Positions 53,624 through 56,305 are shown, counted from the first letter of the stretch. The stretch is DNA of 64,000 bases from an uncultured bacterium (GCA_963844965.1 CAWJQC010000004.1:41609-105608); one strand, 5' to 3'. The notes: generated from the letters alone by a model not told the origin. Made by a program: numbers and translations.

Positions 53624-56305
53624 ATGAGTGGGATAAAAATAAATCTTTCTCTCAGCGAAATCCCAGGCATCGGCCCGCGTTTTCTGGAACGGCTGGGAAA
53701 ACTCGGCATAAAAACCGTCCGTGATCTCATTTATCATTTTCCGGCCCGCTACGAGGATTTCTCCCAGATATACAAAATTTCCGACGTTGAGCCGGGGGAA
53801 CAGGTAACAATACGTGGCGTTGTTGAAGACACCAAACTGCGGCGGACTTGGAGAAAACACATGACAATCGCCGAAGCCCTGATCCGCGACGATTCCGGAA
53901 CGATACGCGCCATCTGGTTCAACCAACCATATGTTTTGAACACTCTGCGGGTCGGGCGCACGGCGAATTTCGCAGGCAAAATATCCATATCGGACGAGGA
54001 CGAAATTTATTTGAGCCACCCGGCTTATGAAATCGTCGGCAGTCGGGAGTCGGGAACGGAGAAGCAAGAAACAAAACATACAGCGCGGCTCGTCCCCATT
54101 TATCCCGAAACGCGCGGCCTCACATCCAAGGGGTTGAGATATCTGATCCAGCCAATTCTGAAAAACAGCGAACAGCTGGAGGAATGGCTGCCGCCGGAAG
54201 TTCTGCGCGAAAATAATTTTCCCGAAATAAACCTTGCGCTCAGATCCATACACTTCCCCGAAAAAACCGAGGATGCTCTTGTCGCGAAAAAACGCTTCAC
54301 TTTTGAAAACCTGTTCCTGCTGCAACTCGCCAATCTTGAACAAAAATTGAAACTCGCGCGCGAAAAAGCGCCAGTGATCAAAACCGACATAGAACACCTG
54401 AAAAAAATGATCTCGGAACTGCCATACGAACTCACGTTTTCGCAAAAGAAATCATTGTGGGAAATCATCCAGGACCTCGCCAAAAAACAGCCGATGAACC
54501 GCCTGCTCCAGGGCGACGTGGGCTCCGGCAAGACGGTTGTCGCGGCGCTCGCCGCGGTAATTACCGCGGAAAACGGGCTGCAGACCGCGTTTATGGCGCC
54601 AACCGAGGTTCTCGCGAGACAGCATTTTGAAACATTGAAAAAATTATTCGCCGGAATTCCCTCGATCCATCAACCCGTAGTTGGGCTTCTCACGTCAAGC
54701 GAAGCAAAAATCCTCTACGCGACAGACCTTGAATCAAAAATCAAAAAACCGGAGTTGCAGGAAAAAATAAAAAACGGCGAGGTAAAAATAGCCATCGGCA
54801 CGCACGCTTTGATACAAAAAGACGTGGCGTTCGGCAATCTTGCCTTTATCATCATTGACGAACAGCATAGATTCGGCGTCTCACAACGAGCTGCGCTCGT
54901 TCGCGGACAGACGCAGAATGATAATACGCGGACAGACGCTGAACAACTACTATACGAAAAAACGACGTTTGAGATAAGAAAAAGTCTGTTTGAGGTGAGA
55001 AAACAACTGGGCCTTGGTCATAAAGAAGTGGTGTATCAGAAAGCATTGGAGGAGGAGTTCAAGAAATCCGGTGTAATATTTGAGAAAGAAAAGAAAATTC
55101 CTGTCGTTTATAACAAGAAAAAGATTGGCGTTTATCAACCGGATTTTGTCATAGATAATGAAGTAATTTTGGAACTTAAGGCTCTTCCCTTTATCGGCGG
55201 CATCGAAAAAAAACAGCTGTGGAATTATTTGAGGGGTTCGGATTACAAACTCGCGCTTATGGCAAACTTTGGACCGGAAAGATTATCCATAGAGCGGGTA
55301 GTATACGATATTGCGCGGAGTCGGCGGCTGTCAGCGTCCGGTCAGCAACTGTCCGCGCCTATCCCCCACCTCCTCTCAATGTCCGCCACGCCAATCCCAC
55401 GCACGCTCATGCTCACCGTCTTCGGCGATTTGGATATATCGCTCATCACCGAACTTCCCGCCGGCAGAAAAAATATCGTAACAAAAATAATCCCCCCACG
55501 GGGCAGGAGCGAAGCCTATGAATTCATCCGCGGCGAAGTGAGGGCCAGCCGGCAGGTTTTTGTCATCTGCCCCCGCATTGACAAACCGCAGACAGGCGCA
55601 GACCACACGCAGACAAACGCAGACAAGACACAGACAGACGCAGACAATTTTCAGCGGCTGTCTGCGTCAAGTCAGCGACTGTCCGCGTTAAGTCCACGTA
55701 AGTCCGCGTTAGTGTGGGAAGTAAGATCCGTGAAAGAAGAATTTGAAAAATTATCCAAGAAAATTTTTCCGGATTTGCGCGTCGCCATGCTCCACGGCCA
55801 GCTCAAGCCAAAAGAAAAAGCGGGTATCATGAAGGACTTCCGCAACTACAAAATAGATATTCTCGTTTCAACTTCCGTCGTGGAAGTTGGCGTGGACGTG
55901 CCGAACGCAACAATAATGATGATTGAAGGCGCCGATCGCTTCGGGCTGGCTCAGATCTACCAATTCCGCGGACGCGTGGGGCGCGGCGAACACCAATCCT
56001 ATTGCTTCCTGTTCACGGATTCGTCCGCCAAAACTACGCGCGAGCGGCTGCAGGCCGTCCTTGAAGCCAAGAACGGCTTTGAGCTCGCCGAGAAGGACCT
56101 GAAGATCCGCGGTCCCGGCGAATTCCTCGGCACGGCGCAGACCGGCTTTCCCGACACGGCGATGAGCGGCCTCATGAACCCGGAGCTCGTGAAAGCAAGC
56201 CGCGAAGCGGCGGCAAAAATCGTCCAAAAAGATCCGCTTTTCAAAAATTATCCGCTCCTGAAAACCAAATTAAACGAGTTCCGGAAGGAAATCCACTTGG
56301 AGTAG
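53624..56305 (+). CDS. recG: ATP-dependent DNA helicase RecG carrying two in-frame insertions
   Basis: Wedge/OB N-terminus; motif I GDVGSGKT; motif II IIIDEQHRFGV; motif III SATPIPRTL; later VSTSVVEVGVDVPNA and QFRGRVGRG. 893 aa against ~680-700 expected. The excess is accounted for by 54908-55357 and 55589-55708. Confidence 0.92.
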   Translation: MSGIKINLSLSEIPGIGPRFLERLGKLGIKTVRDLIYHFPARYEDFSQIYKISDVEPGEQVTIRGVVEDTKLRRTWRKHMTIAEALIRDDSGTIRAIWFNQPYVLNTLRVGRTANFAGKISISDEDEIYLSHPAYEIVGSRESGTEKQETKHTARLVPIYPETRGLTSKGLRYLIQPILKNSEQLEEWLPPEVLRENNFPEINLALRSIHFPEKTEDALVAKKRFTFENLFLLQLANLEQKLKLAREKAPVIKTDIEHLKKMISELPYELTFSQKKSLWEIIQDLAKKQPMNRLLQGDVGSGKTVVAALAAVITAENGLQTAFMAPTEVLARQHFETLKKLFAGIPSIHQPVVGLLTSSEAKILYATDLESKIKKPELQEKIKNGEVKIAIGTHALIQKDVAFGNLAFIIIDEQHRFGVSQRAALVRGQTQNDNTRTDAEQLLYEKTTFEIRKSLFEVRKQLGLGHKEVVYQKALEEEFKKSGVIFEKEKKIPVVYNKKKIGVYQPDFVIDNEVILELKALPFIGGIEKKQLWNYLRGSDYKLALMANFGPERLSIERVVYDIARSRRLSASGQQLSAPIPHLLSMSATPIPRTLMLTVFGDLDISLITELPAGRKNIVTKIIPPRGRSEAYEFIRGEVRASRQVFVICPRIDKPQTGADHTQTNADKTQTDADNFQRLSASSQRLSALSPRKSALVWEVRSVKEEFEKLSKKIFPDLRVAMLHGQLKPKEKAGIMKDFRNYKIDILVSTSVVEVGVDVPNATIMMIEGADRFGLAQIYQFRGRVGRGEHQSYCFLFTDSSAKTTRERLQAVLEAKNGFELAEKDLKIRGPGEFLGTAQTGFPDTAMSGLMNPELVKASREAAAKIVQKDPLFKNYPLLKTKLNEFRKEIHLE
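54908..55357 (+). other. 450-nt in-frame insertion in recG encoding a GxxExxY-family (PD-(D/E)XK-like) domain flanked by inverted word repeats
   Basis: LGHKEVVYQKALEEEFKKSGVIFEKEKKIPVVYNKKKIGVYQPDFVIDNEVILELKALPFIGGIEKKQLWNYLRGSDYKLALMANFG matches the GxxExxY pattern. The flanks are cgcggacagacgcagaat..tacgcggacagacgctga and the reverse-complement-like ctgtcagcgtccg..ctgtccgcgc. Confidence 0.75.
55589..55708 (+). repeat. 120-nt in-frame palindromic insertion in recG (solo copy of the same word-repeat arms)
   Basis: cagacaggcgcagaccacacgcagacaaacgcagacaagacacagacagacgcagaca attttca gcggctgtctgcgtcaagtcagcgactgtccgcg. It translates as QTGADHTQTNADKTQTDADNFQRLSASSQRLSALSPRKSA. Confidence 0.7.

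Follow-up and report, generated by a model that had tools for sequence, protein, structure and literature searches.

The DNA considered here is a stretch of 64,000 nt from an uncultured bacterium (GCA_963844965.1 CAWJQC010000004.1:41609-105608), called the window below, with positions counted from its first letter. On its plus strand, at 53624-56305, the ORF list gives recG as an open reading frame (ORF) of 893 amino acids, whose product matches Pfam RecG_wedge, DEAD, Helicase_C and RecG_dom3_C as well as the NCBIfam RecG equivalog. Here we report on a 40-residue, in-frame insert in this helicase gene, the DNA of which is a long hairpin of short tandem words and which probably derives from a family of selfish elements. 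Three loops of the protein are affected:

Site 3, about residues 139-150
Site 1, residues 426-580
Site 2, residues 653-698, the loop with the 40-residue insert

Positions 55589-55708 (plus strand) encode QTGADHTQTNADKTQTDADNFQRLSASSQRLSALSPRKSA, 40 residues in frame with the recG ORF. An earlier note on this DNA had claimed 40 extra in-frame codons in recG, and the program translation of these positions returned exactly the residues that it quoted. The ORF is unbroken through the insert, and the palindromic stretch, 120-147 nt long, is in frame. The insert follows ...VFVICPRI on the C-terminal side and lies, by alignment to Thermotoga maritima RecG (1GM5), between the helicase subdomains, where that protein has a linker of 4 residues (between 590 and 595). 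A RecG profile scan of genome contigs, which returned mostly distant RecGs and served only for the baseline linker length, gave an equivalent linker of 6 residues (EESEKL-like) in most bacteria and of 11 residues in many Patescibacteria, among the matches listed. In the AlphaFold model the RecG core and the GxxExxY domain inserted at site 1 are confident, and the predicted local distance difference test score (pLDDT) is below 50 at the site-1 arms (residues 430-440 and 565-576) and over the site-2 insert (residues 654-690); the site-2 peptide is thus predicted to be a disordered surface loop. The parts of the site-2 insert are as follows:

55572..55718, plus strand, hairpin from outermost base pair to outermost (folding), with the host codons for CPRI and LVWE at its base
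55587..55645, plus strand, left arm of six tandem C[GA]CAGAC words, translated QTGADHTQTNADKTQTDAD; Tandem Repeats Finder (TRF) gives 5.8 copies of a 10-nt period and 3.2 copies of a 21-nt period
55645..55650, plus strand, loop CAATTT, 6 nt
55660..55708, plus strand, right arm of five GTC[T/A/C]GCG or GTCCACG words, translated RLSASSQRLSALSPRKSA; TRF period 21 x 2.1 copies

The region 55570-55730 folds into a single long imperfect hairpin with an RNA minimum free energy (MFE) of -67.7 kcal/mol, against -39.0 +/- 3.8 kcal/mol for its dinucleotide shuffles (z = -7.6, 0 of 200 as stable); DNA folding parameters give z = -4.5. A sliding-window MFE along the window is governed by GC content. The hairpin has 51 pairs, the outermost being 55572/55718 and the innermost 55644/55651. 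Left-arm words start at 55587, 55597, 55608, 55618, 55629 and 55639, at a spacing of alternately 10 and 11 nt, two words making up 21 nt or 7 codons; those of the right arm start at 55660, 55671, 55681, 55692 and 55702, with the same spacing. The hairpin of facing word arrays described in the earlier note is therefore real, with six CGCAGAC-type words opposite five GTCNGCG words, and three tandem CGCAGA words had 0.00 expected occurrences in shuffles of the window. Rfam gave no match to the hairpin above the gathering score, only sub-threshold hits resembling miRNA precursors at 21-28 bits, as against 54 (mir-192) and 100 (the other three).

The two strands differ in stability: for 55572-55718 the RNA MFE is -76.9 kcal/mol on the minus and -53.8 kcal/mol on the plus strand, since the mismatches are for the most part A.C on the plus and G.U on the minus strand. 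The site-2 hairpin of the related genome P0018 has the same asymmetry (-43.5 on the minus and -15.1 on the plus strand), as does that of P0015. The mismatches often fall at third positions that are synonymous (GCA/GCG, TCT/TCC), and codon drift may lie behind the difference. GC skew on the plus strand is negative over the entire window, which points to the minus strand as the lagging-strand template.

Related words occur elsewhere in the window, to which the census of copies in this genome refers; it found two copies in recG, a remnant, and a one-armed array after rpsJ. Apart from the site-2 copy they are:

54902..54943, plus strand, left arm of site 1, CGCGGACAGACGCAGAA-type words, translated RGQTQNDNTRTDAE; repeat families D2/D3, inverted pairs I2-I7
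54938..55309, plus strand, GxxExxY / PDDEXK_3 nuclease domain of site 1, the cargo; PF13366 E = 8.5e-28, TIGR04256 E = 1.5e-29; pLDDT about 95 as a separate domain
55321..55357, plus strand, right arm of site 1, translated RRLSASGQQLSA
54035..54055, plus strand, decayed word remnant of site 3, GTCGGCAGTCGGGAGTCGGGA in the wedge-domain loop (TRF census); pLDDT below 50 at residues 141-156
38257..38287, minus strand, three related words in a one-armed array, GCGCGGAAC TACGCGGAAT TACGCAGAAAC, immediately behind the rpsJ stop

The GxxExxY domain, which is complete, interrupts RecG in frame between helicase motifs II and III, 230 bp upstream of the site-2 insert, and its two arms form a duplex of -53.3 kcal/mol. 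The right arms of sites 1 and 2 (55321-55357 and 55651-55687) are 86% identical over 37 nt and the left arms 82% identical over 17 nt; sites 1 and 2 of the P0015 genome are related in the same way. At site 2 no GxxExxY ORF stands between the arms, the loop being only 6 nt long. As to the related words that the earlier note had placed after rpsJ, three tandem words are present, but they form a single arm, with no reverse-complement partner array within 250 nt and hence no hairpin of such words; the array adjoins an ordinary terminator-like hairpin at 38233-38258. The genes rpsJ and rplC, usually adjacent in the S10 operon, are here separated by about 4.4 kb of other ORFs (33903-38290), and the array and the terminator-like hairpin lie on the rpsJ side.

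Orthologs were compared among the 120 best of roughly 8000 RecG hits, all Parcubacteria-type and 53-77% identical to the query, and at the DNA level in eight genomes with RecGs 55-77% identical to it. Site 2 holds a hairpin in all eight, built of the words CGCAGAC, CACGGAC, CCGAA/TTCGG or the 7-mer TAACAAC/GTCGTTA in varying number, which indicates that the insertion is old in this clade and not a recent landing. The corresponding peptides are QTNAD...PRKSA-like and of widely differing length in many relatives, and are encoded by other words in some (TTNNQQ/LVVSRKS; SELSEK/FGTFGWNSGFSDR); all that stands there in further relatives is an acidic linker, conserved and about 19 residues long, or a remnant of the kind PQTDTD...PRQAKLWEV. 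In the lineages with the acidic linker, that linker is unchanged at a divergence comparable to that of the hypervariable lineages. The recG genes of P0012 and P0018 are about 98-100% identical in most 60-nt windows and 13-25% identical at site 2, with core proteins 98.9% identical. The 7-mers of P0018 equal the 10-mers of P0012 less 3 nt in both arms (AGTC[AGC]GTT and AAC[GCA]GACT), so that the two arms have changed together. Differing types of site-2 hairpin are also found within the pairs P0044/P0055 and P0021/P0024 (94-95% core identity). Homologous RecGs thus do share a hairpin at exactly this loop, a sharing that the earlier note, joining it to an absence of other copies in the genome, had set against an inserted element; what they share is not a plain linker, since the DNA is palindromic in all orthologs examined and has been replaced between near-identical genomes.

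The other two loops occur in several states. At site 1, GxxExxY is present in about 45 of the 120 relatives and, in all those listed, is flanked by QT.TQTNAD-like and SQR.SAS.PR.SA-like peptides; a solo hairpin was found in P0071, a right arm only in P0028, and 7-11 residues in the rest. Site 3, the wedge-domain loop after query residue 144, has no insert in P0002 and P0007. Solo hairpins occupy it in P0010, P0013, P0015 (DNA MFE -52 kcal/mol), P0035, P0038 and P0053, a one-armed array in P0012, P0014 and P0018, and arms with GxxExxY in P0041 and P0057. Arms with GxxExxY therefore occupy at least two RecG loops (sites 1 and 3), and solo hairpins all three. The cargo is present in one and absent from the other member of the pairs P0064/P0117 (93% core identity) and P0002/P0007 (91%), and it is at site 1 in one and at site 3 in the other of P0030/P0041 (91%); presence and absence are polymorphic among close relatives, which is taken here as a sign of mobility. 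In public records seven of these RecGs (P0012, P0015, P0017, P0020, P0024, P0041, P0102), all full-length helicases, go under the name 'GxxExxY protein' on account of the domain inserted in them, a systematic mis-annotation.

Between the window and P0015, identity at third codon positions comes to 0.37 for the RecG core and 0.32 for GxxExxY, both of which are saturated, and to 0.77 and 0.69 for the site-1 arms. The arm DNA is hence held, or repeatedly reset, at the nucleotide level, while the cargo has diverged along with its host. Among P0012, P0014 and P0018 the site-1 arms, which lie 400 nt apart, are identical; this fits the proximity of arms as the driver of instability.

Host proteins other than RecG were sought in an exhaustive protein search with the GxxExxY domain and arms of the window as query (6896 cluster representatives, E <= 1e-3). 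Many of the top matches were long proteins with the domain in mid-sequence, and twenty were scanned against Pfam. The hosts comprised LepA/EF4, GatB, dihydrofolate reductase (DHFR), RtcB, leucyl-tRNA synthetase (LeuRS), asparagine synthase, glycosyltransferases of family 2 (GT2) and families 1/4 (GT1/GT4) and Wzy-type ligases (Wzy_C), typically with the host domain in two stretches around the insert. Arm peptides stood on both sides of GxxExxY in all 17 proteins checked, of the type ...TQ[TI][ND]AD before it and ...[PQ]R.SA after it; regular-expression counts of such peptides give rough lower bounds. In the lepA DNA the left array is CGCGGACTGA four times over, and the right one consists of GTCCGCG words. 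A protein search with the 46-residue hairpin peptide for solo in-frame hairpins in other hosts gave no candidates. The earlier note had proposed that the site-2 insert is a solo version of the GxxExxY arms and that the family can land in coding sequence in frame and carry GxxExxY. The former is supported by the shared words, by the empty, solo and cargo states of sites 1 and 3, and by the presence of both arm peptides beside GxxExxY in every host protein checked; the latter is supported by the splitting of host domains in at least ten unrelated families, the use of at least two RecG loops, and the differences between relatives 91-93% identical.

Similar structures also stand outside host proteins. 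Contigs of 33-72% GC came out of a metagenome scan for the word CGCAGA three times in tandem; a few hundred chance matches were to be expected by rough estimate, so that the evidence lies in nearby complementary arms and adjacent GxxExxY genes and not in the number of matches. About half of the contigs had a complementary array 10-150 nt away, usually intergenic and often directly after a stop codon. Such hairpins, with and without GxxExxY, were found in unrelated phyla, and in the contigs L124, L138 and L105 a GxxExxY ORF lay exactly between the arms or beside them. In another contig (L040) the words flanking the GxxExxY gene were TCAGCG/CGCTGA, and cultured isolates of Bernardetia (CACAGAG), Sphingomonas (CGCGAAG) and Treponema likewise have GxxExxY between inverted word arrays. 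The gene and its arms lie between co-oriented fabD and fabG in Sphingomonas (L220, 1477-1905) and between co-oriented ade and mannose-1-phosphate guanylyltransferase genes in Bernardetia (L219, 1483-1857), and appear to ride inside the host operon. The GxxExxY gene of L124 (4261-4611), between CGCAGATTA arms, has a nested GC-rich palindrome of about 37 nt (GCCCGCC...GGCGGGC) near its 5' end, which apparently breaks the frame. On a related Parcubacteria contig (L207, 17400-17930) a four-helix-bundle gene (PF05635 23S_rRNA_IVP, weak bAvd) stands between inverted GGAAT/AGAAT-type word arrays. A scan of viral contigs for GxxExxY gave seven distant homologs of giant-virus type, without arms; for 190-nt flanks, the noise of duplexfold z-scores left them unusable.

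At least ten further hairpins, about one per 5 kb, were seen in the window (7914-7953, 14513-14609, 15005-15072, 17221-17305, 18144-18233, 24573-24703, 26323-26390, 30206-30261, 40373-40432, 58880-59048). They consist of tandem words of 7-8 nt, mostly AT-rich (TAGAAAA, CTAATTT, TTCCAAT, GTAGGTA, AAAATCA, ATTAACG), and are intergenic as far as checked, some lying between rplB and rpsS and between rplR and rpsE of the ribosomal-protein operon. Some of these words recur in hairpins on related Parcubacteria contigs (L204, 16842-16956; L206, 20786-20909 and 22496-22584; L208, 3479-3602 and 3977-4086). The hairpin at 58880-59048, (GTAGGTA)n / (TACCTAC)n with perfectly complementary arms of 24 nt that are 111-118 nt apart, spans the annotated start of the ORF 57365-59017 (minus strand), whose first residues (...TTYYLLPTTYY...) are translated repeat. 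At 50072-50374 there are direct pairs of 9-nt words (TGTCCGATT twice, TGTAACATT twice, TGTCCCATT/TGTTCCATT) and GTTACAT three times, together with only short ORFs, which gives the region an iteron-like look.

The cargo protein alone is predicted to have a generic PD-(D/E)XK nuclease fold (pLDDT 90.8). Foldseek retrieved generic PD-(D/E)XK folds only, at template modelling (TM) scores of about 0.4-0.5, and the nearest solved folds (Cas4, lambda-exonuclease-like enzymes, RNA-splicing endonucleases and Hjc) are none of them close; a sequence search of the PDB gave only T7 endonuclease I (E = 0.33). In the literature on GxxExxY/PF13366, on RecG insertions of the Candidate Phyla Radiation (CPR) and on tandem-repeat intervening sequences, no description of a hairpin-armed GxxExxY element was found. 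The site-2 insert takes its place among the in-frame palindromic repeats, and the element family that probably lies behind it has no published description among these sources.

The site-2 segment is probably the cargo-less, translated stem of a family of selfish elements built like the intervening sequences (IVS) of 23S rRNA. A full element would consist of a left array of purine-rich tandem words, an ORF of about 125 residues for the GxxExxY PD-(D/E)XK nuclease, and a right array of complementary words. In Parcubacteria such elements lie in frame inside protein-coding genes; the words are free of stops and their peptides (QTNAD... / ...RKSAS) hydrophilic and predicted to be disordered, so that a copy in a surface loop would simply be translated and tolerated. 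The solo copy is expected to be of no benefit to RecG. It may be what remained of a cargo-bearing copy after loss of the cargo, or a stem that can receive a copy of the cargo. With arms only 6 nt apart, the site-2 hairpin should form readily on single-stranded DNA, and its fast, arm-coordinated change could result from replication slippage in the word arrays combined with intrastrand template switching between the close arms. Template switching at quasi-palindromes is an established mutational mechanism in Escherichia coli and keeps arms complementary. Gene conversion from other copies in the genome is another conceivable source of the change at site 2. The substrate of the GxxExxY nuclease might be the word arrays or else the hairpin or cruciform, and its action might drive the spread of the family.

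Several points weigh against this interpretation. No direct repeat that could be a target-site duplication is visible beside either recG insert, the literature searched gives no characterised activity for GxxExxY, and any transposition or homing of the family is hypothetical. Over the 64 kb of the genome covered, words of the CGCAGA type are confined to recG and to the array behind rpsJ, which gives no sign of dispersal across this genome. Cargo at site 2 was found in none of the 120 best RecG hits, and the link between solo and cargo forms at that loop hence rests on the identity of the words and on the analogy with sites 1 and 3. The third positions of GxxExxY are as saturated as those of the RecG core, which makes the site-1 copy an old resident of these lineages and not a recent arrival. 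The difference between P0012 and P0018 could be a replacement by another hairpin family and not evolution in place; an intergenic hairpin of the contig L206 has the same GTCGTTAGTC words as the site-2 hairpin of P0018. Finally, the contig of the window has apparent indel errors in rpsJ, tuf and fusA, though recG reads through intact. The coding sequence of rpsJ (38288-38600) is read in two frames, tuf (39041-40132) has an off-frame tail (363 residues, about 399 expected) and fusA (41437-43541) is broken into ORFs of 557 and 152 residues; these breaks are probably assembly errors and not biology, and call for caution in arguments from reading frame on this contig.

A further step would make the solo hairpins landing pads, with GxxExxY cutting the hairpin or cruciform and cargo being copied in from another copy through arm homology; we regard this as a tentative and rather doubtful extension. 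Among the alternatives proper, the hairpin may have grown in place: an acidic linker would have been expanded by slippage and made palindromic by template switching without ever having been mobile, and its likeness to the GxxExxY arms would come from gene conversion within recG. The variable length of the site-2 loop throughout Patescibacteria (6, 11 and 14-62 residues), the repeat numbers that differ among orthologs, and the cargo-free state of site 2 throughout the 120 best RecG hits all agree with such growth, and a genome so rich in tandem-word hairpins of unrelated words may have a general process that makes them. It is nevertheless an unlikely explanation, as the same word family stands beside GxxExxY in unrelated host genes and in other genomes, solo and cargo states share the loops at sites 1 and 3, and CGCAGA-type hairpins with and without GxxExxY recur in unrelated phyla.

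We consider it quite improbable that the hairpin is a selected nucleic-acid structure that regulates recG, be it a site of processing by RNase III or another enzyme, a translational pause site or a structure of the lagging-strand template. The stems of IVS are RNase III substrates (PMC4990558), all eight orthologs keep the site-2 hairpin at the DNA level despite RecGs only 55-77% identical to the query, the site-1 arm DNA is conserved at synonymous positions, and the fold is much stronger on the minus strand, which GC skew suggests to be the lagging-strand template. Against this, the hairpin is lost or reduced to remnants in many close relatives, the free change of word type and length fits a specific regulatory site poorly, no Rfam family matches, and cleavage within the ORF would destroy the message, yet the frame is always kept.

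A very unlikely reading takes the arms as a signal for excision at the RNA level. The arrays would pair in the mRNA, RNase III or the GxxExxY nuclease would cut the stem, and RtcB would rejoin the exons, in the manner of an rRNA IVS or an archaeal bulge-helix-bulge intron; the fold search with GxxExxY also retrieved RNA-splicing endonucleases. If this were true, the inserts, including the solo hairpin, would be a new class of bacterial mRNA intervening sequence, and their in-frame, stop-free design a fail-safe by which unprocessed messages still give a working protein. The preserved reading frame argues against obligatory excision of the site-2 hairpin by RNase III.

There is hardly any probability left for a low-complexity linker, specific to the lineage and retained for a reason at the protein level, such as spacing or charge between the two RecA-like domains, with incidental palindromy. 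The frame is always kept, an acidic left peptide is followed by a basic right one, and the position is between helicase subdomains, but pLDDT is below 50 throughout, palindromy is far above chance, canonical RecG needs only 4-6 residues here, and the wholesale replacement of the peptide between the 98.9%-identical proteins of P0012 and P0018 essentially excludes this reading. An intein (no intein or Hint family in Pfam; variable repeat peptides at the junctions), a group I or II intron or translational bypass element (frame kept, no stops), a CRISPR array (period too short), a plain Rho-independent terminator (inside an ORF, no T tract) and an assembly artefact (hairpin at the site-2 loop in all independent assemblies) were rejected.

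Among known systems, the 23S rRNA IVS of Coxiella, Leptospira and Salmonella (some with an ORF for an S23p/four-helix-bundle protein) share with the selfish-element family proposed here an inverted-repeat stem and a small ORF in the loop, and they too are regarded as selfish and possibly once mobile. The IVS of Coxiella has a stem of terminal inverted repeats with tandem GACAGAT heptamers, the same kind of word as in the recG hairpin, whose copy number varies between strains, and is excised by RNase III (PMC4990558). The 23S_rRNA_IVP gene on L207 has the same inverted word arms as the GxxExxY elements. Unlike these IVS, which belong to rRNA helix 25 or 45, the recG copies sit in a protein-coding gene, they have a PD-(D/E)XK nuclease as cargo instead of a four-helix bundle, and the site-2 copy has no ORF; moreover, removal by RNase III leaves the rRNA fragmented, whereas the recG frame is preserved across both junctions and the element is evidently translated. 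Rickettsia palindromic elements (RPE), of about 100-150 bp, lie in frame in unrelated housekeeping genes, are translated and tolerated at protein surfaces, and are conserved among orthologs (review PMC10969869). The site-2 copy resembles them and intragenic MITEs (miniature transposable elements with inverted repeats) as a palindrome of 120-147 nt in frame in a translated housekeeping ORF. RPE, however, are not made of tandem 7-11-nt words, have no known cargo form and are confined to Rickettsia, and sequence similarity to them is not expected; intragenic MITEs differ from the recG inserts, which have no target-site duplication and are associated with a PD-(D/E)XK nuclease gene and not with a known transposase.

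Repetitive extragenic palindromic (REP) sequences, their doublets forming hairpins (REPINs) and the REP-associated tyrosine transposases (RAYT; TnpA_REP) are similar in their many solo hairpins, in a nuclease-type gene flanked by inverted repeats and in the homogenisation of repeats within a genome. RAYT are, however, HUH Y1 transposases (IS200/IS605-like), whereas Pfam and NCBIfam give only PDDEXK_3/GxxExxY here; REPINs are extragenic, and RAYTs occur in single copy and outside host proteins. Inteins with homing endonucleases are likewise selfish nuclease inserts, in frame in conserved housekeeping proteins, patchy among close relatives and at several sites per host protein; the present inserts have no Hint domain or splice-junction residues, no splicing is expected, and their palindromic nucleotide arms have no intein counterpart. 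Palindromic amphipathic repeat coding elements (PARCELs; PMC2996958) are described as intragenic repeats with DNA palindromy read in frame and a horizontal distribution. Every single unit of a PARCEL is a palindrome and codes for amphipathic structure in surface proteins, unlike the two-armed elements with optional cargo considered here.

The inserts have practical consequences, because they cause mis-annotation and inflated protein lengths, and the solo hairpins are hypervariable markers that separate near-identical strains. The finding would make testable the processing of long translated hairpins in CPR mRNAs and the action of a minimal PD-(D/E)XK nuclease on tandem-word stems. If the proposed origin of the site-2 segment is true, it would give the large uncharacterised GxxExxY family (PF13366/TIGR04256) a genetic context as the cargo of a hairpin-armed selfish element, and would link rRNA intervening sequences, intergenic repeat hairpins and the unexplained domain insertions in CPR proteins. 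The stop-free palindromic linker words in RecG, LepA, GatB, DHFR, RtcB and LeuRS would then be a distinct answer to the problem that inteins solve by splicing.

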